Source: Convolutriloba macropyga (Eukaryota). From it: 64,000 bases of DNA. The number at the start of each line of letters is the position of its first letter. The stretch's first letter is position 1. Of the stretch, positions 22,402-57,803 are shown in pieces. Both the position numbers and the translations under genes were made by a program. The notes below the pieces were generated by a model. That model had not been told where the DNA came from. It saw only the letters and a program-made list of their open reading frames with translations, and searched no databases. The DNA is taken from positions 70,866,001-70,930,000 of the forward strand of contig NC_134471.1 of assembly GCF_964194025.1 (NCBI RefSeq), in the 5' to 3' direction.

Positions 22402-22831
22402 TGTGAGGGTCACACGTATGTAAAAAAAGGGTGTACTGAAAACCTTGGGTTTCAAGGTCAAAGATTTAGTTTAAATTTTAATTTATTACTTGATTAATGA
22501 CTGACACAATCTTGATAGGTGTCGACAGATTGAAATAGACAAAGCTCGGGCTTCGAGCAATACTAACAATTGTGACATATCAGTATTTACTTGGTTAATT
22601 TACCACAGTGATAGAACCGATATTGGGTACGAACAAAACTGAGGATAAAACTCATTCATTGAATAATAAACCTACCTTCACAGTCAATCACTCAATTAGA
22701 TCTTCATTTATTTGAAACCATTCTCTTCTGTTTTTATCTACTTATTAATTAAACTTCAATCCTTGTATTTTAAACAGGTACCACGCTCAATTACAAAAGA
22801 TTATACATATTGCGCACGGGCGGCTGCTATA
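22402..22831 (+). repeat. Gypsy 5' LTR
   Basis: TGTGAGGGTC...GGCTGCTATA, direct repeat of 39601-40030. Confidence 0.95.
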
Positions 22832-22832
22832 G

Positions 22833-22843
22833 TGGCGACAGAG
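22833..22843 (+). promoter_or_regulatory. Gypsy primer-binding site
   Basis: TGGCGACAGAG 1 nt after the 5' LTR; TGG complements tRNA CCA; resembles Ser(GCU)-type PBS TGGCGACGAG, but the tRNA is not confirmed. Confidence 0.7.
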
Positions 22844-23132
22844 ATTAAAAGTGGATCTTTTCCATTTGTGCCCCCCCAGTACGTTATGCGCCCCCCAGTC
22901 ACAGAGCACGAGCCATTACATAGTAAATTACTATGTAAAAATATTGCACGTGCGTCTGAGGGGTGCAAATAATATGCGCCCACTAAGCTGGGGGGGCACA
23001 AACGGAAAAGATCCTTAAAGGTAAATAGAAAACCACCACCCAATAATTTGAGCGTTGAACTAATTTCCAAGAGAAATCTATTTTTTTTGTTCGGAAACCA
23101 ATTTTTAAAATCGAGTTCGACGTCTTAACTTT

Positions 23133-23352
23133 TGTTGCGGTGCAACATTAATTGAATCACTTGCTTAGAAATGCTTTATTACAACGCTTTATGCTTAAAA
23201 ATCTCAAGCTCGAAAAGACCAAGTGAATGTGATAATATCGTTTGAAATTATGAATATTTGGTTTCAGCACGTGGTTAATTATCATTGTTTTCCTCATCTT
23301 GCTCGGATTGCATTGAAGGTCATTGTATCAAAGGCTATTGTAAATCGTAACA
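23133..23352 (-). repeat. BEL-1 3' LTR
   Basis: TGTTGCGGTG...ATCGTAACA; repeat of 30394-30613. Confidence 0.95.
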
Positions 23353-23563
23353 TACCGGCCTCCTTGAACTGGTTCAACTTTATTAATATATCATTGAAAC
23401 TGGCTTTCTGGCTAAGTGGTCAATTGCTGTAAATAGTTTTTCTCGGCAACCCATTACAAGTTTGTTGATACTTTCTTTAATTCAATCAGTTCTTGTTTGT
23501 CAGTTTTGTACAGTTGTAATTTACATTTCCTTGATGTCATTCCTCGTCTGCATCCTCTGTTGT

Positions 23564-26500
23564 TCATTCTTCATCTGTGTCATTTTCTTTGTCAGATCTT
23601 AATGACGGCATGTCAATATCCTCTTTCATTAACAAGACAAGCTTGTTGACTGGTCGTATAAATAGTCCAGATGATGTCTTCAGTTCAACAACTCGAACTA
23701 TTTTATCATTTCCGTCAAAGACCTTTGTTATTCGTCCCATTGGCCACAGAGTGGGTGGTGTGTTCTCTTCCTTGATTATTACTACATCATTGATGTCAAT
23801 ATTTGGTTGTCCCGTTTGCCATTTTTTCCGTGGTTGTAAATTTGACAAATATTCTGTTGACCACTTCTTCCAAAAGTCTCTGATAAGATTGTCCATCCTC
23901 TTCTTCTGTCGTGTCAATGAAATTGTTTTTTTTTCCTGTTGTTTTTGGTTCAGGCAATGCTGTGATTGGTCGTCCTATCAAAAATTGTCCTGGTGTAAGT
24001 GCTAAGGCATCATTGGGATCATTTGAAACGGACGTAATAGGCCTTGAATTTAAGATTGCTTCAATTTGTGTCAACAGTGTTGTGAAGTCTTCAAAAAACA
24101 ATTTTGTTCTTCCAATGCTGCGGTACATGTGGCGTTTCAAAGATTTGACAGCGGCCTCCCATAGTCCTCCAAAATTTGGTGTTCTCGGCGGTATAGTAAG
24201 CCAAGTAATATTGTTCTCCTTGCCGAACGTTGATATCAAATCTTCAAACTCGTGCGTAGCTAAGGCTTGTCGAAACTCCAACTCTCCCTTGGTCCCAATG
24301 AAAGTTGTTGAGTTGTCGCTGTATATTTCATCAGGAATACCTCGACGAGACACAAATCTTTTAATGGCTGCAAGACAGTCGTCCTTGGTCAGAGACATAA
24401 CTGGCTCTATGTGAACTGCCTTCGTACTGAAGCAAAAGAAAATTGCAACGTATGTTTTCAAAAGCGTTCGAGTTCCATTTTTCGTGTAGAACGGTCCACA
24501 ATAGTCGAGTCCGCAGTGACTGAACGCAAAGGATGGCACTACTCGCTCTCGAGGTAGATCTCCCATCTGAGGCTGTAACAATTTGGCATCAAAACGGATA
24601 CATGGCTTGCATCTGTATAAGACACCTTTCACTACAGAAAGCCCTCCAGGTATCCAAATATTTCGTCGAAGCGTGTATAACGTCAGTTGAGGTCCTCTGT
24701 GAAGACTTTTCTCGTGTGCTTCTCGAATAAGCATTTCAGTGATTGGAAATTTTCTTGGAATAAGAACTGAAAATTTTCGGTCTATTGTGTAGGGTGAATT
24801 GGCTAGGCGTCCTCCAACTCGAATCACCTTATTTTCTTCATCAAAAAATGGTGAAAGGCTGTTGAAACTGCTGCTTCTAGGAAATTTTCGTCTTCTGTGT
24901 CTCCCTTTAGTGGCTGCTGCATAGGCGTTAACGAAACATTTTATTTCTCTGGTGTCATCTTTGTTGTATTGATGTACTGTTTCGCTAGAATTGCCTGTAT
25001 TCCCGGTAGACACGATGTACAGTTGATCCCCAGGGCCCCCGGCCCAACCTATACCATGTCTGACATCCTCCCTTGAGACCCCGACAGCTTCTACGCTGTC
25101 AAGACATCCTGGGCCCCCGGCCCTCCCTATACCTAAGGAATTGGTAATAGAAACTGAGCTGGCATTTTCACCTGCGTCCCCGGCGCTGACAAGACTACCT
25201 GGGCCCCCGGCCCTACCTATACCTAAGGAATTGGTAGTAGAAACATCATCTGCGCCCCCGGCGCTGAAAAGATTACCAGGGCCCCCGGCCCTACCTGTAC
25301 CTAAGGAATTAGTAGAAACTGAGCTCGCATTTTCACCTGCGCCCCCGGCGCTGACAAGACTATCTGGGCCCCCGGCCCTACCTATACCTAGTGAACTAGT
25401 AGAAAAAGAGCTCGAACTTTCATCTGCGCTCCCAGCGCTGACAAGACTAAGACTACCTGGGCCCCCGGCCCTACCTATAACCTCAGGAGTACCGGCTGAA
25501 CTTGAGCTCCAATTTTCGTCCGCGCCCTTGGCACTGACAAGACATCCCGGGCCTCCGGTCCCACCTAAGTGTTGAGGACCACTGGTAACTAAAGAGATCC
25601 CCGTGCCCTTGCCAATCCTGGTGTTGATGTAAGCACCTGGGCCCCCGGCCCTACCAGTACCACCAACCCCCTCTGGTCCAGTGGATTTGATACGTTTCTG
25701 AACGTATTGTTTTGTCGCATCTCTGCTGCTGTTGTTTGCATCTTCAGTGGGCTGATTCATGATGATCTTGTATTCATGAAGAAAGTTTCGCTGTATGAAG
25801 CTGTACACTTGAAGTCGTCCTTCGTATAAATCTTTCCCTTGTAAAGAGACTGAATTATAAGTCCAGATCATTGGTTGAGACGTAGACTCATTACTATCAG
25901 TCCTTTCGTTTGGCGTTGAAGAGCATGCTTTTATGCTGTTCGACATTTTTGTTGTCCGTTGTTTCGCTTTTGAAGATTGAATTCTTCTCCTGATACTGCT
26001 GATGAACTTTTGGACATAGGTAAATATCCTTGTAACTTTATGTATTGACGAATGCCGATTTATCATCAAAACAATTGCGTTATCCTCTTTTGATGAAATC
26101 ATTGTCACGTTTTCAGATTGCACCTTTACTTCTTTTTTGGTCTCTTCTCCTGTAGGTGACAAAATGTCAAGTGAAGGCCAGGCGTTTTCAGGCTGCCGCA
26201 ACCACAATGGTCCATCCCACCAAAGCTTATGGTTCATCAAATCAGCTGCTGCTAATCCTCTGGAAGCACAATCCGCTGGATTATCTTCTGTTGGAACATA
26301 TTTCCAACTACTGGCTGGAATAATTTCTTGTATTTTCGCTACTCGGTTGGCGACAAATGAAATGTTTTCCTTTTCCTCGGATAATCTTGTAGCCAGGCAA
26401 TTGTAACTGTAGAATCTGACCACGCAAAAACCTTCGGAGTTGGAAACCGTTCATCGCTAATAGCATTTGTCACTGCCTCAACAAGCTTAGCTCCTAGCAG

Positions 26501-29500
26501 AGCAGCACAAAGTTCCAACCTTGGCACACAAACTGATTTGATTGGTGCAACTCTTGTCTTTGCTGTAAGCATTTTTGTTTCAATGAAATTGTCTGTCTCC
26601 TGTCTGATGAAAACGACAGAAGCATAAGCTGTAGTAGAAGCGTCGCAAAAGACGTGCAACTGCAAATCTGATTTCGTGGCTGGCTTGAGAATCTTCCGTT
26701 GAAGACTAATTTTTTCAAGATCCTTCAGTTGTGCTCGAAGTCGCAGGTACTGCTGTAGAATTGGGTCCGATAAAGGTTGATCCCAGCTAAGTTTGTCCAT
26801 CCACAACAGTTGAACAAAGGATTTATGTTGAATAGTCGTTGGTGATAGCCATCCCAGTGGGTCAAATAAACGTGAAACTTCTGAGAGGATTTGCCGTTTT
26901 GTAAATGGAGTTCCCTTGTCAAGTTTTACTGTGAAACCAAATTGATCAGGATTTAGATTCCACCTTATCCCAAGCGTCTTAATGGCATAGTCTTCGCTTT
27001 CAATTATCTTCTCGTCTTCCGTTTCTCTGAAAGTGGCAGCTAGTCTTGATACAAGTTTTGAGTCGCTAGATACCCATTTCCGTATATCAAAACCTGCTGA
27101 AGCAAGAAGCGTAATAATGGCGTCCTGAAGCTTCTCTGCGGCTTCTGAATCTTCGCATCCTGTAAGTAGGTCATCCACATACATATCAGTTGTTAGTGAC
27201 AAACGAAGTTTAGTGTTTGTTGTTTCTTCGGCAAGAACTTGTAGTGGTCGAATTGAATGAAAAGACGAAGACGCAATGCCGTATGTTACCCGAGTCATAC
27301 GATAAGTTTCAATCGCCTCTGAATTTGGATCTTTCCACAATAATCGGTGATAATCTTTGTCTTCCTTGTCCAATTCCACTTGCCTATACATTTTTGCAAT
27401 ATCAGCAGAAAGTGCTACTTGGTGTAGTCGAAATCGAACAAGAATGCTGAAAAGGTCTTTCTGAATTTTTGGTCCGACCATGAGTCTGTCGTTGAGAGAT
27501 ACTCCTGTTGTTGTCTTTGCGGATCCGTCAAAAACGACCCTCAGCTTGGTGGTACTGCTTGACTCCTTGAACACACAATGATGACAAAGATAGTAGCAGT
27601 TTTCGACAGGCTTGACAAGTTCTGATGTTGGAACTTTCTCCATGTGTCCGAGATGAAAAAACTCTCCAATGAATTCTGCGTATCTCTTATAAAGGTCGGG
27701 TTGTCTTTCCAATCTGAATAGAAGACTGCGGAGTCGTTTTTTGGCTTGTTGAAGTGAATCTCCCAATGCTTTTGTCTCTTTCTTGAAGGGAAGTTTCACT
27801 ATGAAGCGACCTTCAGGGCTTCTTCTAGTTGTTTCCTTGAAGTGATCATCGCAGCGTTTTTCTTCTGCTGTCCAAAGCTGCGCTGCTGGAACTTCTTCTA
27901 TTTCCCAAAAACGCTGCAAATTTTCTGGCTCTGAAGAAACAAAGAAAGTCTGCAGATCGTTTGTATAGGTTTTGTCTGTCTGTTCCCTTCCAATAACGAC
28001 CCAACCGAACATTGATAGCCTATATGTTATTCCACAGTTAGGCTCCTTTAGTCGATTGTTGCCAATCATTATATCTTCATAATGAGATGCTCCGATCAAG
28101 AGGTCAATTGATGACGGCTTGTTGAAATCTGGGTCAGCAAGCTCCAACTCCTTTACTGTTTCCCATTGGCTGGTGTCAAAGAACCGTGATGGCAGATTAT
28201 CAGTCATTTTTGTCAAAACTGACGCACTAATATTGACAGTGGACGATCTGTTCCTTGATGAGATAAGAAGGTCCACGCGACCTTTGTTGTCTTGAACCGT
28301 CCCACCTAGTCCAAAAACTTTTGTGTTGCTGCTTTTCTTCTTCAATTGTAACCTTTGTACTGCTGATTCAGTTATAAGGTTGTTTTGTGAAGCTGAGTCT
28401 AGAAGTGCCCTAAGTAGAATTGTCTCGCCGTGAACATTAACGGCAACAATTGCGGTTTGAAGAAAGACTTCTTCTGAAGTTCGTTGAGTCATAGCTCCTG
28501 TGAACTTGTTTTCATCCTTAGCTTTTGCAATTGCTGTTGTTGTTATAGCGTTGTTCTCCTGTTTGTCATTTGCTTGAGTGCTGGTTGTTCCGCTAGTTGT
28601 TTGCTGATTGGTGTTTTTGTTGTGAATGTTTTCACGATGAAGAAGAGTATGATGCTTTCTACCACATTGCTTGCATTTCGATCCATCACAATCTTCTGAT
28701 CTGTGTCCCGGTCGCAGACAATTGAAACAGAGTTTTCTAACCTTTATCAGCTCTGCACGTTCCCTCACTGAAAGTTTCTTGAACTTTCCGCATTTGAAAA
28801 TTTTGTGCGTTTCTTCACAACATTCGCATTGTTGCTCGGAAGTCGCCAAATGTGTGTGCAAATGTCGTTGGTTCCCGTTCATTTGAGTTTTTGTCGCTCC
28901 TACTCCATTTGGCGCTGTTGCCTCGAGTGCTTGTGCGCGTTCTTCTAAGAAAAGTCTGAGCTCTGCATACCTTTGAGGTTCCTTGCCTTTTGAAGACAGC
29001 TCCCATTGTTTTCTTGTCTCTGTAGGCAGCTTCTCACTGATCAAGTAAACAAAAAAGATGTCTTGACTATTGACTGGTTCTCCCAAATTCTGCAAGGCAA
29101 GTCGATGTTCGTCCATTGCTTCAATTAAATTTCTTAAGTCGCTGGCATTATCGGTTGTCAGTGATCGATACGAAACAATTGAATGCAGGTGTGTGCGAAT
29201 GATGATCCTCTTGTTCTCGTATCTGTTTATCAGAGTATTCATAGCAATGTCGAAATTGTGATCGGTAACTGGTATCGAGGCAAGCAGTTTGGCGGCATCA
29301 CCTTTTACAGATGCTTTCAGATACTGCAACTTCTGACTTCCTTGAAGAGAACTGTTGTCGATGACTGCTCCTTTGAAGAAATCAAAGAACGAAGTCCATT
29401 CCATATAATTACCCGAAAAAACTGGCAGATTGAGTTTTGGTAACTTGATGTTGGCTGAGCTCCTCATAGCATCGGAGAGCGTTGAAGTAGATGGTGTTGA

Positions 29501-29836
29501 AGTATCTGCTGCTGTTGAAGGTCCCTCAAAACGTTTCGTGAAGCGTTTGATTGCATCAATGTTCTGTGTCAACTTGTCATCAACTTCCTAGGACTCCAGA
29601 ATATCATTGTCCAGTGCTTCCGCCTCCGTCAAGTTCTGTTGAAGTTCTTGGTTCAAAGTTACCAGAAAATTCTGCTTTCGGGTGAGAAGTGTCGCTACCT
29701 GATTTAGCCTGTTGATGTCTGCTTCTGAAATGGTGTCTAGATCTTTTGACATGATATTTTCAGCCTCATTGTTAAACCTTGTAGCAACGCTGCGGTGTGA
29801 TCCCCCCGACTGTTTCTGCATTTCAAGATTGGACAT
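23564..29836 (-). pseudogene. BEL/Pao gag-pol polyprotein with one in-frame TAG (29588) and two frameshifts (~26365, ~23930)
   Basis: KLPKLNLPVFSG gag, triple CCHC (CFNCLRPGH..C), protease LLDSAS, RT YLCHHCV/VVFDGS/ADIAKMYRQV/YVDD, RNase H HVFCDAS..AKTRVAP..PRLEL, integrase GLDYCGP/SDN/GGLWEAAVKS, C-terminal WPMGRI..GNDKIVRVV. Confidence 0.93.
25025..25680 (-). repeat. In-frame Gly/Ser-rich tandem repeat inside BEL pol (8 GxAGGPG-type units)
   Basis: GGGCCCCCGGCCC-type cores at 25033, 25111, 25201, 25279, 25366, 25459, 25549 and 25639; all spacings are multiples of 3. Confidence 0.9.
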
Positions 29837-30393
29837 TTTGACTTGCTGTTGCCTCTGAGGGCGTTTTTTTTTCGTGTCTTTGATGCTGGTCTTTATTCGT
29901 ATTAGTTTCGTTTGTCTTTTTGTGGATTTTGCTGTGCTGAAAGCTAAAAACACACTAAAAGAACGCAAAAGATGGGAAATCGGGTTTCACTTAATCCCCC
30001 CTTCAAAAAATGCGGCCAATTTTTGCGCGCGAACTTAGTGCTATTACTTCGGGGGAGCAAACCTAAACTAAAAATTTCGAAATCTCCGCGAGAACTGAGA
30101 AAGAGATTGTTTTCCCCGAAGTTTCACAAAAAAGTTTTTGTAACCCTTGAGATATAGTTCTCCCACTAGATAACTTTACCGGGTCTCAGAATTAGGTTAA
30201 TCAACCTTGTTATACAAGTTAATCAACTTGTATAACATGAGGGGGGATGTGTTATCTAGTGGGGGGTCCGCTTTTAACTTCCCATTTAAGTTTCCCCTTT
30301 TAGATTTTTTGCTAAATTTTTTGAGAGAGTTAATGCTTTTGGTGCCTAATGCTTTGACTATTTTATCCTTAACCTATTTGTCGGCGGACCAAA

Positions 30394-30613
30394 TGTTGCG
30401 GTGCAACATTAATTGAATCACTTGCTTAGAAATGCTTTATTATAACGCTTTATGCTTAAGAATCTCAAGCTCGAAAAGACCAAGTGAATGTGATAATATC
30501 GTTTGAAATTATGAATATTTGGTTTCAGCACGTGGTTAATTATCATTGTTTTCCTCATCTTGCTCGGATTGCATTGAAGGTCATTGTATCAAAGGCTATT
30601 GTAAATCGTAACA
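30394..30613 (-). repeat. BEL-1 5' LTR
   Basis: Repeat of 23133-23352, adjacent to the PBS. Confidence 0.95.
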
Positions 30614-30686
30614 ACTTTACGACCCGGAAGACGAATTGTGGACTGCTGTCGGGATTCGACAACAACTGCCATCTTGGAACTTTCAA

Positions 30687-30692
30687 GTGAGT
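30687..30692 (+). promoter_or_regulatory. Candidate Gypsy major splice donor in the leader
   Basis: CAA|GTGAGT consensus donor, 273 nt upstream of the gag ATG. Confidence 0.55.
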
Positions 30693-30959
30693 ACTCCCTG
30701 AAAATTCGAATATCTTAAATCAGGGCGTACATGTTTTTGTGATAATAAAATAGCGTTCAGAAACATCAATATTTAAATTTGACTTAATTTGACTTAAACT
30801 CAAGCATTAAACTTCGAGTTTTTTTGCCTTTATTGTAGAGGGAATTAGAGTTTCAATCATATTTAAAAACTGTTAACTAGAGTGTCGGAAAAATAGTTCG
30901 CGTTTCGAACGGAATCAGTGAAATATTTTGAATAACAACAGCTTTTAAAGAAAATAAGG

Positions 30960-31981
30960 ATGGCGCGGCACTCCTCAAAAATGCTGTTACCGGAACCATT
31001 TACTGGATCAAATGATTTTGAAAGTTATATTACACACTTTGCGCTCTTGTCAAAAATTCAAACGTGGCAAAGAAAAGAAACAGTAAACGCCGAGACCGAA
31101 ATTGATGAACGGCCGCATTATTTTGCGTTAAGGTTACAAAAGTCGGCTATTGATTTCTATCGTACACTTTTGGAGGACACCAGAAAGAGTTATGACTAAA
31201 AGCTTTCAGACAACATTATAATGAGAAACCAGTATTGTTCCGGGGGAGGCTAGCTAGGAGAGTCCAGCAGCCTGGTGAAAAACTAACAGATTTTCTCGGT
31301 GATTTGCAAACTTTAGCCTTAAAAGCATACCCTCAGGAGTCTAATGAGATAAGAGAACATCTCATTTTGAGGGGATTCCTCGAAGGCATAGAAAATAGTC
31401 AGGTGCGACTCGACCTGTGAAAGAACTTGGGTGACGCGGAAATAACTTTAGACAAAGCTTTAGAAAGAGCACAACACATTGAAGCAGTCACGAGAATTGA
31501 GGAGGAGGATAATGAGCCACGGGTTTCTGCCATCCAGTCAAATGAAAACACACAACTGATTAATTCGATTAACGATTTAGTGCGGACACTGCAGACTAAT
31601 CAACCTAATATGCAAGAGAATCAAAAGTTTTCATCGCAAGGAGCGCGGCCAAAAGAGTTTCTGCGCGGTAGTGAGCGAAGTTCAAGAGAGAACAAAGATA
31701 GAAATAGAAGTACTAATAGCTATACCAGAAGCAGCGCTGAGCATAGACGAAATAATTACGAAAGTAGAGCGCGTTCGCTAACACCTGGAGGTGAGAACAG
31801 AAGCCGAGATCGATCGCCCGAAAGTCGTGCCGAGCAGTCGAAGGCAGCGGTGAGTTGCGAGAAAGAAAAATGTCGCCGTTGCGGTCAGCGAAACCATGCA
31901 TATAGGGAATGCAAAAACTGTTTCGAATGTGGGAGCCCAAATCACTTCAAACGAAATTGTCCGTACTTAAACGAAAATTAG
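30960..31981 (+). pseudogene. Gypsy gag (disrupted) with two CCHC zinc knuckles
   Basis: PEPFTGSNDFESYITHF, RVQQPGEKLTDF, FLEGIEN, CRRCGQRNHAYREC, CFECGSPNHFKRNC. Confidence 0.9.
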
Positions 31982-32015
31982 CTGGGCTTCCTTTTCAGCC
32001 GGCTACGTAAAAACT

Positions 32016-35000
32016 TTGCGTGGCGGAAACAGCCCAGTGGAGGCATTGTTTGCGAAAATAATGATAAAAGACAAATTGATAATGGCCTTAATTGATAGTG
32101 GAAGTAGTGTTAATATTATAAGCGACACACTCTACAAGCAATTGGGGGAACCGAGCCAGATCAGAATGTGCTATAAAAATATAATAGCTGCCGATAACGG
32201 GAAAATGCCTATAATGGGGTCAACAGATATTCAAGTTCAACTTCAGAAAGTTACATGTGAAATAACAGTTAAATTTCTAGTGACCAGAATTGAGATAACG
32301 CCTTGTCTTTTAGGCATGGAATTTTTGTACAATTTTGACTGTATTTTTAATCTCAGAAAGAACGAAATTTTTTGCGGGGCGATTGGGCAAACATTACAAC
32401 TGGCCCCATCCCAACGAAGTAATAAGAATCTGTTTTTAATTGCTGCTGAGGATCACGAATTACCTCGTCGCTGCGAGGGTTTCATTAAATGCAAAATTAT
32501 TGATGAAGAAGGTAACATAACACAGCAAACAAAAATTATAGTCGAACCCATGAAAGGGTTTGAAGAAAAATCACACTTACTAATAGCGAGATCGCTGAAT
32601 GACATGATTGATGATGTCGTATGGATTCGAGCTCTGAACCCTATATTAGAATCAAAGAAACTTTACAAAAATGCGAGAATCGCATGTGCGGAAAACATTG
32701 AAAAAATTTCAAGATTTCAACAAAATAACCCTGACAATAATAAAAGCATAGGGACGAATTTGATTTCGAGAAACACGTGAACTCAAGTTCAATGAGCTTG
32801 TCTTGTGAGGAAATGACAAAAGTGAGGTCACTTTGCCGAAAATATGAAGTGATATTTTCGCGAAACTCAAATGATATGGGATTTTGCGACCGAATTTATC
32901 ATAAAATAAAATTAAAAAAGGATGCTGTGCCATTCAGACGTACATACGGCAGCATGAGTTTTGAGAAAAAAAAAACTCATGAAGAAAATTGTGGAAGACT
33001 TGGAACGAGATGACTTAGTCGAACAAACACACTCTGATTGGGCAGCACCATCATTACTGGTACCAAAAAAAGACGGAACCTACCGCTTAGTTGTAGACTA
33101 CCGTGGTCTAAATAAACAAATAGAGAAAACATGCTGGCCTTTACCACGAATTAATGAGGTTATTGATTCACTGGAGGGAAACATGTACTTCTCAAACATT
33201 GATCTTCTGTCGGGATACTTTCAAATGGCGCTGGAAGAAGAGAGTCAAAATGCAACAGCTTTTATTACACCTTTGGGCCTATATAAGTGGAAGAGGCTCC
33301 CTATGGGACTAGCTTCTGCACCAGGAGCTTTTCAGAATCTATTGGAATTATTTTTTGCTGGTCTCTCTTACAAAGTAGCTTCAGTTTATCTAGACGACGT
33401 TATCGTTTTTGGAAGAAATTTCGAAGAACATCTTAAACGGTTAGAGCTGGTTTTGCAACGTTTATCGGAGAATGGATTAAAGATTAAAAGATCAAAATGC
33501 AATTTCTTCCAAAAGCGCGTCAGCTTTTTAGGACAAATTATATCTGAGAGTGGTGTCGAGGTCAACACAGAGAAAGTAAGAGCGGTAGAAAAAATGAAAG
33601 AACCATCATCCCTAAAAGACGTCAGGGCTTTTTTGGGCCTTGTGGGCTATTATCGAAAACTCAATCCGGGTTTCGGAAAAACATCAGAACCTCTTTACGG
33701 GTTACTAAATAAATCAAATAACTTTGAATGGAGTACAGAGTGCACAAGTGCGGTAGCAGAGTTGAAGGAAAAGCTTTTAGAAGCCCCAGGTTTAGGATAT
33801 CCAAACGATAGGGATCAATATACATTAACTACTGATGCATCGTTGACAGGCATCGGAGCAATTCTTACACAAAAACAAGGATCTGAGGATAGAGTAATTG
33901 CATATGCTAGCAAAACTTTTAGTAAAAGTCAACGAAACTACTCAGCAACTAAGCGGAAATTATTCGCAATAGTTCACTTTAACCATTATTTTTAAAACTA
34001 TTTACTTGGTCAGCATTTTTTAATTATAACGGACCACAGGGCTCTCATGTGGATCTATAGTTTTAAAGAACCAGACGGTATGGTCGCAAGATGGATAGAG
34101 AAACTTGGGCAATTCAATTTTGAAATCAAGCATAGAGCAGGAGAGAAAATCCCTTTCGCGCATAAACACAGAAGAAGAGGAACAAACAGCTTTCGTTAAC
34201 GCTATTTCGCTAGACGTAGAGCAAGACGATACCGACTATAGTAGTCTAGGTTGGCAGTTACACAAACTGCAGAGAGTAGAACTGCGAGATTCGCAGCAAA
34301 GTGACAATATACTCAAAGAAGTATATTCATTGGTCATAAACAAAAAAAGACCCGAACCACGGCAAATGAGAAACGGAGCTTCAAAGGAGTTATGGAAATA
34401 CTGGGTTCATTATAAAAATCGTTCTCTCATAGAAGGGATTTTGTATCAAAAACACCAAACAGAACCTAACTTTGAAACTGTTTACCAAATGCTGGTACCC
34501 TGGGGTAGAGTGTCGAACACGTTCTTGAGCTGTTGCATGATTCGCCTAGCGCAGGACACTTTGGTGTAGAGAAAACGTACAAACGAGCTTGCGAAAGGTT
34601 TTAATGGCCGTGCATGAGAAGGGACGTAAGAAACTGGATAGAAAGCTGTGACGTTTGCCTAAAAAGGAAAGACACTAAGCAGAAGCATCGGCATTCACTC
34701 ACAAAATGGAAACCTAGTCATCCATTTTGGCAAGTATCTCTTGATATCATGGGTCCACTTCCCAAAACTCAGGGAAACAAGTATATTTTGCTTATCAGTG
34801 ATAAATTCAGTAAGTGGTACGAAGCCGTAGCGTTACCAATCAAGAGGCAAAAATTGTAGCAAAAGCGTTTGTTGAACACTGGATATTAAGATTGGGCTGT
34901 CCAGTCAACCTTCATAGTGACCAAGGGTCAAACTTTATGACTAAATTGTCTCGTAGCCTTTGCAGTGAACTTGGAATTTAGAGAACATCAACCACATCCT

Positions 35001-35991
35001 ACCACACACAAGGGAACGCGATGATTGAACGAACAAATCGAACAATAGAAGAATGCTTCTCCAACACGAGTGGACTAATTTTCTACCTTTAGCGATGATG
35101 ACATATCGATCATCATTTCATAGTGTAACAAGATACAGCCCAGCGTTTGTGGTACTGGGTTTTCCACTGTCGCTACCTATAGACTGCATCTATAGCACAC
35201 CACAGACCACAATATATGCAACACCAGGTGACTATGTTTTCACGATGAAACAGAAACTACAAGAAACGCACCAGTTGATACGAGAGTATATGGATTTCAA
35301 ACAAGAACGCCAAAAATCGTATTATGATCGCAGTAAGTATGGGCCGAGCTATAAAGTTGGCGAAGAAGTGTTAATTTTCAACCCAACGGTTAGAAAAGGA
35401 GAAACAAGAAAATTTACTTCTTTCTATAGAGGACCATACATAATTGTTGAAAATATAAACGATTTGAATTTCAAGGTAGAAGATAAAAAGACGAGGAAAA
35501 CTATCAAGGTCCATTATGACCGACTGAAGAAATATAAAACACGAGAAAAACCATTCACGCCTGAGCCTCAGGCGAAACGAAAAACAACCAGTAAGGAGCA
35601 GAAGAATGGCGATTTGAACAGCCTAGACGATGGCGATATAATTGAAATAGAATCATCAACAGACAGTGAAAGCAATCTAAACACAGAAAATCAATCCGAA
35701 GCTGAGGATGCTAACGATTCACTAAATGTTACAACTGAAACGTCTGAGAATGAAGCTAAAGAATCAGAGCAAGAAACCTCTGAAGGGCAAGAGAAGGCAC
35801 AAAATGTTCCCGAGGGAAGAGGTGCAACTCCATCAAAAGCTACCGAGTACACTGAAAAAAAACCAGCAGAAACAAAAATTCCAAAACCAGAAAAAAAGCA
35901 ACAGGAATCTAGTAGTAAAACAAAAAATACTGAAGAAAAGATTAATAGTATTCCCAAGGCACCAAAAATGGCTACAAGGTCTAGCAGTTGA
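32016..35991 (+). pseudogene. Gypsy pol (disrupted): aspartic protease, dUTPase-like spacer, RT, RNase H, integrase, acidic tail
   Basis: ALIDSGS..LLGMEFL; LVPKKDGTYRLVVDYR, RLPMGL, YLDD; TTDAS..GIGAIL..IAYAS..YSAT; CDVC, VSLDIMGP, HSDQGSNF, GPY motif. Confidence 0.93.
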
Positions 35992-36064
35992 TTAAAATCG
36001 GTGCCTGAGAGATTATAAAATTACTTTACTGAGCAAGATGTGGAGTACTTTAGCTGCCAGGAAA

Positions 36065-36085
36065 CTGACGACGTTTTTGTTTCAG
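36065..36085 (+). promoter_or_regulatory. Candidate env splice acceptor
   Basis: CTGAC branch-like motif, then GTTTTTGTTTCAG|, 20 nt before the env ATG at 36105; same TTTCAG consensus as the host PIG-B acceptors. Confidence 0.6.
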
Positions 36086-36104
36086 GAAAATCCAGAAAGA
36101 AATA

Positions 36105-38100
36105 ATGGAATCGAAAAGAAAGACGAGTTCGTCTGGAGCATCGTGTGATTGAATATCACTATTTTTGTATCTGGCATTGCTAGCCATTTTTGCTTATCCT
36201 TCACTTTGTATTAAATTATACGGCTATGACTTTGACAATATCGTATCAAAAAATATATATTCTCTGGATCACAGTACAAACTGTGATAACAAAATTCGAG
36301 TATCGAAAACAATAGAAGGTAGTTTGATATATGCTGATGTTCAGCCCGAGATAAAATTAAGATTTTGCATGTATGGAGCGGCATATACTGTGTCTGCACT
36401 TAAAAAGAGCAATGTATATGACGATGTTGTCTTTATTACCAAGAACTCAAGACTCCTGAAATCCATATATCCATTCTACGAAGGAACCTGTAGGAGCATT
36501 TGGCAAAACAAAAACTTTGCTTTACCAGGTTTTGGAGATAAAAACCTTAAAGTCAACAATTCAGTGACGGAAAAGATTTTAGAACGATCAAGTGAAACTA
36601 CTTATGCCGAGGAGCACAGCCAGAGCTTCATCAAAAAAAACAATCGTGAAGGTGCTATGTATGCTGAGCCTGTAGAGTGGGTTTCACCTACAGGAGTAAG
36701 ACTTATTGGAAATGTGATGATCAATGCAAAACTTTACATCGGAACAATTTGGGGAAAGCTGATACGAAGAAACCTCTTAAGCTTTAAGGATCCCCTAGGT
36801 TTCTCGAAAACTGTTTTTTATCAAAACCACATATTTTGAAGACAATTTAGTAAACTATTTTTTTGAAAATCAAGGTTAGCAAACATGTCAAACGATCAAA
36901 CACTTTAATAAGGAGGACCCTGTAAAAATTTTTGGTAAAACCAAAACCACTTTTATCAGCGAAAAAAATTTACACAAAAACAAATATGAAGATTTTGGAT
37001 TAGAAATCTTAGAGGAAAAAGCAATTAATTTGTGTGGACAGCAGGTGAAAACAACCGGAGTTCCAGGTGTTTTTTACTCCGAGGAGAGTTCAGAACTGAA
37101 AACTGGTAATCTTAAAATAACCATGGAAATGTTTCTTTCAAGCGTTGTTGACACCTTAAATTTCGAACTTCTCAAGGAGAGAGAAATTTTTTTTATGAAA
37201 ATCAGAACGCTCCAATGCGAGATTCAACGACTAATAATTCAAACTATGATTGACGTATCAAAAAACATTGTTATTCCATCGGTAACGCTCTTTGAGAAAG
37301 GAACTCACGTCGAAAGAGCAGGATCTGTGTTATATGTTCATAAATGTGCAAAGATGGTAGCAACAATAACTAAACTTCATTTTTGCACAGAAGAAGTTCC
37401 TGTGTTAGTAGAGGGTCAGAATTTTTCTTCTATTAGATATATGGACCCTATTACAAAAATTTTGTATCATAATTATATAATCGCTGCATGCAACCCGCTG
37501 TACCCAAATGTTGTGAAATTAGAAGACGGCAGTTTTCAATATGCAGAAACGCTGAAGAAATTCAATCGTGAGATATATGAGTGGTCGATGAATAATAACT
37601 TAAACGTAAGTGATAAAAACCTGCATCGCAACCTCTTCTCCATATCAGACGTAAAACAGAGTCAAATTGCTCGAACAATTCGCCATAATAGTAAAGGAAT
37701 TATCAGTTGGGAAGCATCCCGAGATTCAGATGGAAAATACAGCCATGAAAATTTTTTTTCATTTGAACGCTCAGTTCCAAAAACAATTTGTTCTAACAAA
37801 TGAAATAACATTTTTTCATAACTTAGAACTGAAAGCTTATACGTTTGGTTAAAAGCTAAGGACATTGCTGTGTCAGTCTTAACAGTTTACCTCATATTCC
37901 AAATTGTGAAAAATTTTCCTAAAATGTTTATCTGTTTAGGATTAGTCATTAATGGAGCCTCCTGGCAACAACTGTTCCGGAATCTCGACCCTGTAACGGG
38001 AACACGTATGTATAATCAACGGCTCAAATTAATTAATGAGCGTCAAGAACAAAAGAAAAAGATTGAAGAGAAAGAGTCCTTGAAAGAGTCGGTTGTTTAA
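36105..38100 (+). pseudogene. Envelope-like glycoprotein (chuvirus-G-like), disrupted
   Basis: Signal-peptide-like FLYLALLAIFAYPSLC followed by LYGYD(F); N-glycosylation sequons; Cys pattern QCEIQR...AGSVLYVHKC...CTEEVPV...YMDPITKIL...CNPLYP; C-terminal hydrophobic segment and short charged tail. Confidence 0.75.
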
Positions 38101-38109
38101 AAAAAGAAA

Positions 38110-38522
38110 AACGAAATTGAGTTGTCTTGAGTTCAAGACCAAAAAAAATGAAAATGAGTTGTCTTGAGTTCAAGACCAAAAATAATGAAAATGACTTGTC
38201 TTGAGTTCAGAGCCAAAAAAAATGAATGAAAATGACTTGTCTTGAGTTCGGGACAAAAAAAAAATGAAAATGACTTGTCTTGAGTTCAGGACCAAAAAAG
38301 AAATTAAAATGAGTTGTCTTGAGTTCAAGACAAAAAAAAATGAAAATGAGTTGTCTTGAGTTCAAGACCAAAAAAAAAATCAAAATGACTTGTCTTGAGT
38401 TCAGGACCAAAAAAAAGTGAATGAAAATGACTTGTCTTGAGTTCAAGACCAAATAAAATGAAAATGAGTTGTCTTGAGGTCAAGACCAATAAAAATAATG
38501 GAAAAGTCTTGAGATCAAGACT
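38110..38522 (+). repeat. Array of 11 palindromic units GTCTTG-AGNT-CAAGAC with A-rich linkers (35-42 bp period)
   Basis: Cores start at 38124, 38161, 38198, 38239, 38277, 38316, 38353, 38392, 38434, 38471 and 38506. Confidence 0.95.
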
Positions 38523-38551
38523 AAAAATATTGAGAAACTTTAGAAGCAAAA

Positions 38552-39471
38552 ATGGTCTCTATTAAACATAGCAGGCAGTGAGACCCCACAAATTGGTGAA
38601 TATGTGTACTATATGCCAGAGTTGTGGAAAGTTATTTCGGAGATTTCCCCGGGAGTGTACCGAGTGGAATCTTGTCTGTCACGGACTCGGAAAGTGTCTA
38701 CACTAGAACCTCTGGCACCCGCCAATATTCGGTCCCGAGCTCTGCAGACTGAAGTGGAACTGCAAAACCAGTACGCGCAGTTAGAGAAATTGAAGAGTAC
38801 AAATTCTTTACTCCAAAAGGATCTTGTCGAGCTTCGACAAAAACTAGACAAACATTGCGACAAAGCCAAAGAGGCAACAAGAGAAGCATTGAGAAAACTG
38901 AGCGCCGAGTGTGAGGCGCTAAGAGATAACCTAAAGGCGGCGGCAGCTAGAAATGCCGAACAAGAGCAGTCAATCAACTTACTTAAGCAGGAGTTGGCCG
39001 ATCTAAAAGTCAATACTGATAAAAAAGAGCGAAGCCATGGAGAAAATGGAGAAAGAGAATGACCAATTGAGGTCAGAGCTTCAGCAGTTGGAAAACTATA
39101 ACCAGTACTTGGCGAGTGAGTGCCGAAGAAAAGACACTATAATTGATAGACAAAAGCATTCTTTGAAGAACGAGAAAGCCAAAACGAAGGCCACAGATAA
39201 GTGTTTATTCGAGATTCGGAATAAAAAGGTATTGAATCGGCCTGCGACATTGTACGAGATTTTGTTGGTAAAAAGTTCTGCTTCAAAAGATCAGATCAAA
39301 AAACACTACCACAAAATGAGTTTGTTGACGCACCCTGATGCTGGTGGAGATGAGGAGTTTTTCAAGAACATCAATCGAGCATAACAAATACTGATGAACG
39401 ATGGGGCGCGAGAAGTGTACAACAATTTCCGGCTGGACGAGGTAGAGAAAGTCATGAATGACGAAAACTGA
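38552..39471 (+). pseudogene. Extra Gypsy ORF: SH3-like N-terminus, long coiled coil, C-terminal DnaJ J-domain (frameshift ~39025, TAA at 39382)
   Basis: LYEILLVKSSASKDQIKKHYHKMSLLTHPDAGGDEEFFKNINRA*QILMNDGAREVYNNF is a canonical J-domain with HPD; heptad-rich stretch ELQNQYAQLEKLK...LKQELADLK...LRSELQQLE. Confidence 0.85.
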
Positions 39472-39587
39472 TAACTAAACTTTTTATATGAAAAGTACAA
39501 GATTTTTGTATTTTAAAACGTTCTTGTATCAAGAGCTGTAAATTTTGTTTGATTTTATGTGAGTGAGTGGCACACTCTATTCTTATT

Positions 39588-39600
39588 GAGAGGGGGGCAG
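39588..39600 (+). promoter_or_regulatory. Gypsy polypurine tract
   Basis: GAGAGGGGGGCAG immediately before the 3' LTR. Confidence 0.85.
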
Positions 39601-40030
39601 TGTGAGGGTCACACGTATGTAAAAAAAGGGTGTACTAAAAACTTTGGGTTTCAAGGTCAAAGATTTAGTTTAAATTTTAATTTATTACTTGATTAATGAC
39701 TGACACAATCTTGATAGGTGTCGACAGATTGAAATAGACAAAGCTCGGGCTTCGAGCAATACTAACAATTGTGACATATCAGTATTTACTTGGCTAATTT
39801 ACCACAGTGATAGAACCGATATTGGGTACGGACAAAACTGAGGATAAAACTCATTCATTGAATAATAAACCTACCTTCAGAGTCAATCACTCAATTAGAT
39901 CTTCATTTATTTGAAACCATTTTCTTCTGTTCTTATCTACTTATTAATTAAACTTCAATCCTTGTATTTTAAACAAGTATCACGCTCAATTACAAAAGAT
40001 AATACATATTGCGCACGGGCGGCTGCTATA
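39601..40030 (+). repeat. Gypsy 3' LTR
   Basis: Direct repeat of 22402-22831, preceded by the PPT. Confidence 0.95.
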
Positions 40031-40100
40031 AAATGATTTGAATATCACCGAATTTCTTCAGTTTACTTGCAAAATATTGAGTTGGGTGGCCTTCAACCCC
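40031..40100 (-). pseudogene. Penelope-like remnant, portion upstream of the Gypsy insertion
   Basis: Removing the Gypsy element and one AAAT copy restores the frame QYFASKLKKFGDIQIIFTTRKLR. Confidence 0.7.
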
Positions 40101-44797: not shown

Positions 44798-47300
44798 TGT
44801 GTAAGTTTCTTGGGCCTGAGAAATGATAACTCAATGTTTGAAAAAGTATCATAAATTGATGTAGACCACTCCCAAAAATGCACAATTTGATTGGATTATA
44901 AACAATTTATGCTGCTTTTAAACTACATAATTTTTCACAAACAAACTTGAGCAACTTTCATAAGATGCGTGTGTTGAATTTATTTATTAATTTTATGTAA
45001 CATTCATCACTGGGGTATATAATAAGCTGATGGTAATAAACTCGGTTGTATTTTTCAATAATTGTACCAATTACTCAGTTAGTTATGCAAGATTTACATT
45101 TTGTTCCTTTTATTAACCGACTCGGCTGAATAGGCCTCAGTTTTCAGTTGTTATGTTACTTGTTTGTTGAAAATATTCGTGTTTCTTTGTAGTTTGGTAT
45201 GCATGAGTTATACTGTGTCTGTAGTTTGGTTTTGCATTACTAAATAATTAGAATTAGGAATTTGACATTTTTTACATCTATGACCAGGCAAAGAACAAAA
45301 AGCGCAGAAGTCATACTTGATAGAACCAGTCTTCGTACGGGAAAGCAATTCCCTATTTTAATGCACATGTACTTCTTCAAAAATTGCCCAAAAATGATCT
45401 ATAGGTATGTATTAACCGACTCGGCTGAATATGCCTCGGTTTTCAGTTGTTATGTTACTTGTTTGTTGAAAATATGTGTAAGTTTGTTGGGCCTGAGAAA
45501 TGATAACTGAATGTTTGGAAAAGTATCAAAAATTGATGCAGACCACTCCCAAAAATGCACAATTTGATTGGATTATAAACAATTTATGCTGCTTTTAAAC
45601 TACATAATTTTTCACAAACAAACTTGAGCAACTTTCATAAGATGCGTGTGTTGAATTTATTTATTAATTTTATGTAACATTCATCACTGGGGTATATAAT
45701 AAGCTGATGGTAATAAACTCGGTTGTATTTTTCAATAATTGTACCAATTACTCAGTTAGTTATGCAAGATTTACATTTTGTTCCTTTTATTAACCGACTC
45801 GGCTGAATAGGCCTCAGTTTTCAGTTGTTATGTTACTTGTTTGTTGAAAATATTCGTGTTTCTTTGTAGTTTGGTATGCATGAGTTATACTGTGTCTGTA
45901 GTTTGGTTTTGCATTACTAAATAATTAGAATTAGGAATTTGACATTTTTTACATCTATGACCAGGCAAAGAACAAAAAGCGCAGAAGTCATACTTGATAG
46001 AACCAGTCTTCGTACGGGAAAGCAATTTCCTATTTTAATGCACATGTACTTCTTCAAAAATTGCCCAAAAATGATCTATAGGTATGTATTAACCGACTCG
46101 GCTGAATATGCCTCGGTTTTCAGTTGTTATGTTACTTGTTTGTTGAAAATATGTGTAAGTTTGTTGGGCCTGAGAAATGATAACTGAATGTTTGGAAAAG
46201 TATCAAAAATTGATGCAGACCACTCCCAAAAATGCACAATTTGATTGGATTATAAACAATTTATGCTGCTTTTAAACTACATAATTTTTCACAAACAAAC
46301 TTGAGCAACGTTCATTAGATGCGTGTGTTGAATTTAATTAGTAATTTTTTGTAACATTCATCACTGGGGTATATAAAAAGGTGATGGTTAATAAACTCGA
46401 TTGTATTTTTTAGTAATTGTACCAATTACTCAGTTAGTTATGCAAGATTTACATTTTATTCCTTTTATTAACCGACTCGGCTGAATATGCCTCGGTTTTC
46501 AGTTGTTGTGTTATTTGTTTGTTGAAAATATTCCGCTGACTTTGTAGTTTGGTATGCATGAATTATACTGTGTCTGTAGTTTGGTTTTGCATTACTAAAT
46601 AATTAGAATTAGGAATTTGACATTTATTACATCTATGACCAGGCAAAGAAAAAAAAGCGCAGAAGTCATACTTGATAGAACCAGTCTTAGTACGGGAAAG
46701 CAATTTCCTATTTTAATGCACATGTACTTCTTAAAAAATTGCGCAAAAATAATCTATAGGTATTTATTAACCGACTCGGCTGAATATGCCTCGGTTTTCA
46801 GTTGTTATGATACTTATTTGTTGAAAATATTCGTGTGACTTCGTAGATTGGTATGCAAGAATTATACTGTGTCTGTAGTTTGGTTTTGCATTACTTAATA
46901 ATTAGAATTAGGAATTTGACATTTTTTATATCTATGACCAGGCAAAGCAAAAAAAAGCGCAGAAGTCTTACTTGATAGAACCAGTCATAATACGGGAAAG
47001 CAATTTCCTATTTTCCCGGGCCGAGGATTTTGCCCAAAAATAACGGGGAAATGTGTGTAAAGAGTGTAAAAATAATATTTTTACACCGTTAGTGCCCCCC
47101 TTATTAAGGGTGGAATTGCATATTAAAGTGTAATATTAGTGGTGTAATTTTAATATTTAACGGTGGAAAAAGAGNNNNNNNNNNNNNNNNNNNNNNNGGA
47201 CACCTCGGCCCGGGTTAATACATATGTACAAAAAAATGCGCAAAATTAATCTATAGGTATTTTTAATACATTGCGGCCGTTATGCCTAGTCTTAACAGTT
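44798..47300. repeat. Tandem array, 677-bp unit x3 plus partial, with an internal sub-repeat containing a hairpin
   Basis: Near-identical units (ORF track repeats at 45262, 45939, 46617); motif TAACCGACTCGGCTGAATA.GCCTC.GTTTTCAGTTGTT occurs twice per unit. Confidence 0.95.
47015..47214. mobile_element. TIR element (CCCGGGCCGAGG...CCTCGGCCCGGG) inserted in the tandem array; spans a gap
   Basis: 12-bp perfect TIRs; array sequence resumes after GGG|TTAA; N gap at 47175-47197 makes the true length unknown. Confidence 0.7.
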
Positions 47301-57372: not shown

Positions 57373-57442
57373 CATACTTTTGGTCAAGTCTGATTATTCA
57401 CTTGTCAAACTGGCATCCATTCTGTATTTTTTTACTCAAAAA

Positions 57443-57803
57443 AATGTCAAAAATAGCCGGGGAAACGTCAAAAACAGCCAGAAGAAACGTCAAAAGTAAA
57501 CGAAAAACGTCAAAGTAGCCAAACAATCCTCAAAAATAGTCAAAAAACATCAAAAATAGCCAAAAAAATGTCTAAAACAGCCGGGAGAACGTCAAAAATT
57601 GCCACAGAAGGGTCAAAAATAGCCAAAAAAACTTCAAAAACAGCCGAAAAAACGTCAAAAGTAGCCAAAAAAACGTCAAAAGTAGCCAAAAGAAACGTCA
57701 AAAATAGTCGGAAAAATGTCTAAAACAGCCGAGGAATGTCAAAAATAGCCAAAAAGAAACGTCAAAAATAGCCAAAAAAAACGTCAAAAATAACCGAAAA
57801 AAA
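57443..57803. repeat. ~21-bp minisatellite (AAAATAGCCAAAAAAACGTC-like)
   Basis: Roughly 16 degenerate tandem units. Confidence 0.9.

Follow-up and report, generated by a model that had tools for sequence, protein, structure and literature searches.

An array of self-complementary 16-nt units between the env-like gene and a J-domain ORF of a Ty3/gypsy retrotransposon in Convolutriloba macropyga: a constrained sequence with a probable role at the RNA level

Eleven self-complementary 16-nt units, strung together by A-rich linkers, separate an env-like gene from a J-domain ORF in an LTR retrotransposon of Convolutriloba macropyga, and the array that they form is real, element-specific and evolutionarily constrained. 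Judging from how its sequence varies among copies, the array would probably act at the level of RNA, and the chances are about even that it serves export or packaging as a cis-element of the plus-strand RNA, with units that would switch between small hairpins and extended duplexes. The window referred to throughout is the whole stretch of 64,000 nucleotides that was analysed (assembly GCF_964194025.1, NC_134471.1, positions 70,866,001-70,930,000 of the forward strand), and all coordinates are window positions.

The array, its host element and their distribution

The core unit reads GTCTTG-AGNT-CAAGAC and occurs eleven times in the window, with starts at 38124, 38161, 38198, 38239, 38277, 38316, 38353, 38392, 38434, 38471 and 38506; a search of the window tolerating 4 mismatches again returned eleven units, TRF describes the array with a period of 37, 10.2 copies and a score of 507, and the linkers are 62-67% A. 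The 3' arm is changed to CAGGAC twice and to CGGGAC and CAGAGC once each, the third unit being broken, and the loop reads AGGT in the penultimate and AGAT in the last unit. Count, variants and loops are therefore as claimed by the original prediction, which had placed eleven hairpin-type units between env and the J-domain ORF. Its invariant 5' arm, by contrast, is a property of the window copy that is lost across copies, where 55 residual changes of the young subfamily described below fall in the 5' arm, next to 67 in the 3' arm. The A-to-G changes in the 3' arm, from which selection on RNA had been argued, are present but mostly belong to one inherited unit type (83 units in 34/39 young arrays), and as a window-level argument they are weak.

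By its sequence features, the host of the array is a Ty3/gypsy LTR retrotransposon (22402-40030) laid out as follows.

22402..22831, + strand: 5' LTR, with 10 differences per 430 nt from the 3' LTR
22853..23014, no strand assigned: leader insertion of ~160 nt, skipped in alignments of other copies
23133..30613, - strand: nested BEL/Pao LTR retrotransposon, unrelated to the array, with 220-nt LTRs that are 99% identical
30687..30692, + strand: predicted leader splice donor GTGAGT, 5' of gag, found in 25/30 copies whose leader was located
30960..35991, + strand: gag (zinc knuckle), protease, RT, RNase H and integrase C-terminal domain, broken here
36074..36085, + strand: predicted env splice acceptor, a U-rich tract plus CAG, its AG in 20/28 matched young copies
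36105..38100, + strand: env-like gene (PF24664), several open stretches, broken in the window copy
38124..38521, + strand: array of 11 self-complementary 16-nt cores, A-rich linkers, spacing 35-42 nt
38556..38571, + strand: predicted J-ORF splice acceptor, 50 nt 3' of the array
38572..39471, + strand: accessory J ORF, with an N-terminal motif, a long predicted coiled coil and a C-terminal DnaJ domain with HPD
39588..39599, + strand: polypurine tract
39601..40030, + strand: 3' LTR

The assignment draws on the paired LTRs, a PBS-like site, the polypurine tract and the order gag-PR-RT-RH-IN, with the integrase core broken. Pfam scored, in gypsy order, a zinc knuckle, protease, RT, RNase H and the integrase C-terminal domain (the sole integrase domain scored) and, downstream, the Monjiviricetes fusion glycoprotein PF24664 (E 6e-11) followed by a DnaJ domain (E 8e-11); in many copies the PF24664 glycoprotein lies within the LTRs, as a captured env should. 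The J ORF is broken in the window copy, its first Met being at 38613, and stays open over ~308 codons in many other copies. Modelled from its single sequence (pTM 0.33), the J protein shows a coiled coil and the J domain and nothing more; the model had no match in the PDB at E <= 0.001, a protein atlas search returned unnamed matches only (all <=0.78), and a search of viral contigs for relatives of env found none. Other repeats seen in the window are an in-frame 87-nt repeat encoding a G/P/A-rich peptide in the nested BEL/Pao pol (25055-25590), between the protease-side domains and integrase, a ~677-nt tandem repeat of about 3 copies at 44798-47014 (95-97% identical) and a 21-nt tandem repeat of 17 copies at 57437-57803.

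The element family is large (150 scored J-domain matches among 1503 candidates), and the genome holds 910 matches to a 14-nt core pattern as against 36 for the reversed control. The first 30 of these 910 represent 13 distinct sites (16 of the 30 loci were read), 12 of them inside the element and one a lone unit, which argues against a genome-wide satellite independent of the element, the outcome that the original prediction had singled out as damaging. All 54 loci that were found by protein search and have both anchors carry the array. For the analysis of variation, 126 arrays were extracted, both anchors being required, and 95 remained after re-fetched or near-identical loci had been dropped; they fall into two subfamilies, 39 young copies (349 units) and 56 old ones (406 units), and are not independent, some being segmental duplicates. 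With 2-21 units per array, it is a family-specific 3'-internal tandem array of variable length, absent from sister families. In a deletion check, two of 40 near-full-length loci shared an internal deletion (one of the 40 was analysed in the wrong orientation); since the shared flanks mark this only sharing pair as a segmental duplicate, the check is uninformative about a cis role.

A resident CAAGAC-rich repeat was considered as the origin of the core and rejected, as the 12 of 13 matches that were read were all coding repeats in an unrelated ATPase-like gene; this multi-copy gene has an in-frame Gln/Asp/Asn hexamer repeat after a Walker A motif and is, at a guess, Polinton-like. Metagenome searches gave eight matches, with no env, J or RT found in any of them. 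Seven of the eight are similar 16-mers in dispersed CAAGAC/CGAGAC-rich repeats, often in the C-A version, which is not retained in the retroelement, and on this sequence evidence the matches are treated as unrelated to the element. On one metagenome contig (2808-2940), the same 16-nt core recurs between C-rich linkers in a 30-nt minisatellite that is unrelated, probably by chance.

Sister families provide natural controls. In two gypsy families of this genome, a Monjiviricetes-type env precedes an ORF for a coiled coil and a J domain with HPD. The env-plus-J sister family (about 40 places, from 43 matches) encodes a J-ORF homologue that is 27% identical, has an env-J spacer of ~50 nt and an acceptor-like AG in 17/20 copies, and the core unit was absent in 20/20 of its loci; the array is thus lineage-specific and dispensable for the env-plus-J layout. 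Another family, with copies >99% identical and a 684-codon env that is 28% identical, continues after env with a 330-codon ORF that belongs to no Pfam family, lacks a J domain, has a basic/Ser-rich C-terminus and is preceded immediately 5' of its ATG by an acceptor-like site; here, too, the array is absent. Nor did any of 20 loci from a PF24664 search have an array after env (20-23% identity where a match was given, i.e. in 9/20). At least three further PF24664-env families were seen (open frames of 769-902 codons), some of them followed by an ORF of 284 or 611 codons, the 284-codon one having no Pfam match.

Variation of the core and the comparison of strands

The commonest 16-nt core is identical in the young and old subfamilies, whose linkers differ, and net divergence between them, estimated without two poorly aligned copies, is 0.033 in the core (only positions 5, 12 and 13) as against 0.217 at 83 fourfold-degenerate sites. 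The order of unit types is likewise kept across arrays: young arrays end with an AGGT unit followed by an AGAT unit, and in old arrays two types alternate and a third is terminal. Even one very old copy with different linkers retains a decayed form of the same core.

Four stem variants are inherited, and all of them preserve pairing: C-G at 5:12 (114 units in 52/56 old arrays, a double change from U-A), A-U at 1:16 (the terminal unit of 36/56 old arrays, a double change from G-C), U-G at 4:13 (the young type mentioned above) and U-G at 5:12 (28 units in 20 arrays, in the other linker class, its mirror C-A being seen in 5 units of 5 arrays). Because only 6 of the 36 possible single stem changes preserve a pair, the symmetry of the unit is evidently maintained, and the inherited substitutions are, as originally supposed, non-random with respect to pairing. 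The residual changes of young copies (n=122) comprise 86 that break a pair and 36 that keep one.

Is it RNA or DNA that this symmetry serves? The compensatory double substitutions at 5:12 and 1:16 do not separate the two, since at the level of DNA the core forms a palindrome with 7-bp arms, with which they are equally compatible. A strand test was built on mirror changes, G-U versus A-C, which arise in near-identical sequence contexts, with the inherited types set aside. In young copies G-U changes prevailed at 30:16 (p 0.054) and in the old subfamily at 68:46 (p 0.049), adding up to 98:62 (p = 0.0055, for copies that are not independent), and led in 10/10 comparisons; the corresponding ratios in control flanks, with five poorly aligned copies excluded, were 1.2 and 0.91, i.e. 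about symmetric. Decay of CpG does not produce such a bias, given that the four single CpG-decay products of the C-G type number 16, 13, 12 and 6, with U-G versus C-A at 16 versus 13. Among the inherited types, two are G-U and none is A-C; these are probably two events, for which the chance under a symmetric model is 1 in 4. The copy tree has a star-like shape with poor resolution, and the old G-U type is mostly confined to one position of the array, which fits a single origin. Taken together, the G-U bias lends modest support to a single-stranded plus-strand structure, although a G-T bias could also come from single-stranded DNA hairpins or RNA editing without any function. What persists of the earlier proposal of selection on plus-strand RNA stems is thus the pairing-keeping character of inherited changes and this modest bias, rather than the weak argument from the window.

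Predicted folding, transcript layout and a possible mechanism

Folding energies of the window array are -109 kcal/mol (z -7.2) for the plus strand and -90 (z -3.4) for the minus strand, and the plus strand is the better folded one in 39/39 young and 47/56 old arrays. A single hairpin is worth ~-6 to -9 kcal/mol and a full 16-bp duplex of two units ~-20, and the all-hairpin state of the window array reaches -64 versus the minimum of -109; at equilibrium, neighbouring units are therefore predicted to pair over 16-18 bp instead of forming eleven separate tetraloops, and on average a unit adopts its own hairpin with a probability of 0.10 in young and 0.18 in old arrays. When the pairing span is limited to <=30 nt, 10/11 hairpins form at >=0.99, and with a span of 60 nt ten of them fall to <=0.08 and the last to 0.32. 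The tetraloops would accordingly be the predicted kinetic state and the inter-unit helices the predicted equilibrium state, so the stem-tetraloop form envisaged at the outset is predicted under short-range folding only. Rfam gave no match at E <= 1 over 37900-40100, and hence none to a known export element of the CTE or RRE type. RNase III substrates of the Rnt1p type carry an AGNN loop on a long stem of ~14-16 bp; the AGNU loop would fit this class, but stems of only 6-7 bp led to its rejection.

Splicing is throughout a prediction from sequence. The array lies 50 nt 5' of a conserved acceptor-like site and is thus predicted to remain on genomic and env RNA and to be spliced from the J mRNA. 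The AG of this site is present in 39/39 young copies, and in old copies the A is found in 52/56 and the G in 51/56; a separate count gave the site in 37/37 copies. The 14 codons between the site and the first J Met (38572-38612) diverge at 0.32 in third positions versus 0.07 in first and second ones and match the start of the sister-family protein, which makes an upstream in-frame exon likely. No in-phase ATG is present in the leader exon. The first env codons contain a weak candidate donor, GTGATG, that is in phase (24/26 young copies and most old copies read), and as a putative source of the upstream J exon it would resemble the splicing layout of HERV-K Rec and HTLV Tax.

How could such an array act? 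In the favoured reading, one leader donor would be joined either to the env acceptor or to the J acceptor, so that the array would stay on genomic and env RNA and be missing from J mRNA, the layout of a retroviral response or transport element. During transcription, each unit would form a stem of 6 bp capped by an AGNU tetraloop, the A-rich linkers keeping hairpins apart; as stem and loop are self-complementary, units could also rearrange, pairing over 16-18 bp with an adjacent unit or with one on a second genome, in the manner of retroviral dimer-initiation hairpins. Repetition may then offer multivalent binding to a host export factor or to Gag. The J protein is conceivable as a partner but not required, since the sister family encodes J without an array. 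An extended version, which seems quite unlikely, pictures a 'complex' gypsy retroelement on the plan of a complex retrovirus, with a fusion protein of negative-strand RNA virus type (Monjiviricetes), a spliced J-domain accessory protein that would be an Hsp70 co-chaperone and the array as multivalent platform, in which the J protein or Gag would couple export and packaging to Hsp70; the array would then be a response element or a dimerisation platform of switchable hairpins on unspliced RNA.

Competing explanations and known systems

The main rival, which is somewhat unlikely, takes the units for palindromic DNA sites, with 7-bp arms, a 2-bp spacer and A-tracts between sites, that would be bound by a dimeric host factor and act as an internal enhancer, promoter or insulator, much as the Su(Hw)-binding region does in Drosophila gypsy. 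Both double changes preserve the palindrome, the loop changes fall within the 2-bp spacer, the U-G 5:12 type amounts to one half-site from each of the two main types, and the 16-mers in seven of the eight metagenome matches are similar in kind. A symmetric site, however, predicts as many G-T as A-C changes, at odds with both the 98:62 ratio and the absence of inherited A-C next to two G-U types. In the old subfamily, distances between units cover the range from 24 to ~45 nt without a break and show no helical phasing, the acceptor-like site of the downstream ORF would make an internal promoter unnecessary, and the search for a resident CAAGAC-rich repeat that could have been the source found none. 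Compared by eye, the motifs of p53, HSF, Smad and nuclear receptors fit the core in part. A neutral minisatellite, born of reverse-transcriptase slippage at a hairpin and kept palindromic by hairpin-templated correction rather than selection, is very improbable, even though copy number is hypervariable, sister families lack the array and the majority of rare changes disrupt pairing, as would be the case for changes acquired after insertion. The precedent is there, as family-specific tandem arrays are common in the 3' part of LTR retrotransposons, their origin and function being called unknown in the available text of PMC11963269. Against neutrality stand the unchanged core (at 0.217 per site, the chance of 0/16 changes is ~0.02) in the midst of diverging linkers and synonymous sites, the conserved unit order and the lack of any array-less copy among the 54 protein-found loci.

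Two further readings tie the array to expression of the J ORF. As a tuner of RNA processing, at the level of splicing or poly(A) addition, structure 5' of the J acceptor would set the balance between spliced J mRNA and env plus genomic RNA; the array ends 50 nt 5' of the acceptor-like site, its last one or two units are fixed special types, and A[AT]TAAA (AATAAA/ATTAAA) occurs in the last linker of 31/39 young arrays. We nevertheless give this option little credence, for the hexamer is found in just 6/56 old arrays, unit number ranges from 2 to 21, and the sister family manages an acceptor-like site without an array. A translation-initiation element for the J ORF (an IRES, a shunt or start-stop reinitiation), which the original prediction had also entertained together with AAAATGA start/stop motifs in most units, is extremely unlikely. 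The array does lie directly 5' of the ORF, the 14 codons preceding the Met look translated with their true start unexplained, and the motifs hold up in the young subfamily (ATGA in 236/310 linkers), but old linkers have ATGA in only 13/350, the conserved acceptor-like site 3' of the array would take it out of J mRNA, and the sister family has env and J without it.

Whichever reading applies, the combination of a Monjiviricetes-type env and an accessory J-domain gene in one gypsy element is notable in itself, and the published literature searched, which excluded most subscription papers and Repbase, yielded no account of the element, the array or a retrotransposon J-domain gene. Natural variants make function testable, as they include two compensatory pairs, two wobble types, ordered unit types and an array-less env-plus-J sister. 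Among known systems, the palindromic dimer-initiation hairpins known from retroviruses (MLV DIS-1/DIS-2, HIV DIS) are single or paired and sit in the 5' leader. The present units share with them the predicted ability to switch from the hairpin to a longer duplex between two identical units (-20 kcal/mol here) and differ in coming in 2-21 copies after env. The insulator of Drosophila gypsy has 12 sites with AT-rich spacers, lies in the 5' UTR and is not known to be palindromic. It has in common with the present case an array of ~0.4 kb with short cores and A-rich spacers in an env-bearing gypsy element, the available text of PMC3701704 describing a 340-bp Su(Hw)-binding region, whereas strand-biased pairing would not be expected there.

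Anakin, a BEL/Pao element with a chuvirus glycoprotein (PMC10084718, PMC12440569), is likewise an LTR retrotransposon that uses a Monjiviricetes-type fusion glycoprotein as env; the present element, however, is a Ty3/gypsy one, and the accessible portions of these two articles describe neither a J ORF nor an array for Anakin. For arthropods, the same portion of PMC10084718 reports no clear capture of a Jingchuvirales glycoprotein by gypsy elements. In plant Ty3/gypsy Retand elements (Tat/Ogre-related), tandem arrays that are specific to each family lie in the stretch from pol to the 3' LTR (PMC11963269), and these elements are thus alike in having a 3'-internal array of variable length beside an extra ORF. 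They differ in that the element described here is from an animal and has an env, that its extra ORF is in sense orientation and encodes a J domain, and that its units are self-complementary with compensatory changes; the available text of PMC11963269 has no match to 'secondary structure'.

Closest to the favoured reading are the retroviral RNA export elements, namely the CTE of M-PMV, the direct repeats of RSV, the RRE of HIV with Rev and the Rem system of MMTV, and extra copies can act more strongly, as in 4xCTE (PMC5035971, PMC4829213, PMC3856414). As far as the accessible parts of these articles go, the common ground is a structured cis-element, here a predicted one, that stays on unspliced or partly spliced RNA only, and an accessory ORF next to env. 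The differences are that the present array has no sequence or Rfam similarity to them and consists of numerous very short identical stems in place of a single large fold, and that its partner and any Rev-like role of its J protein are hypothetical. If the RNA reading is true, a gypsy element of the invertebrate type would carry, in this array, a signal for export or packaging made up of numerous minimal hairpins.
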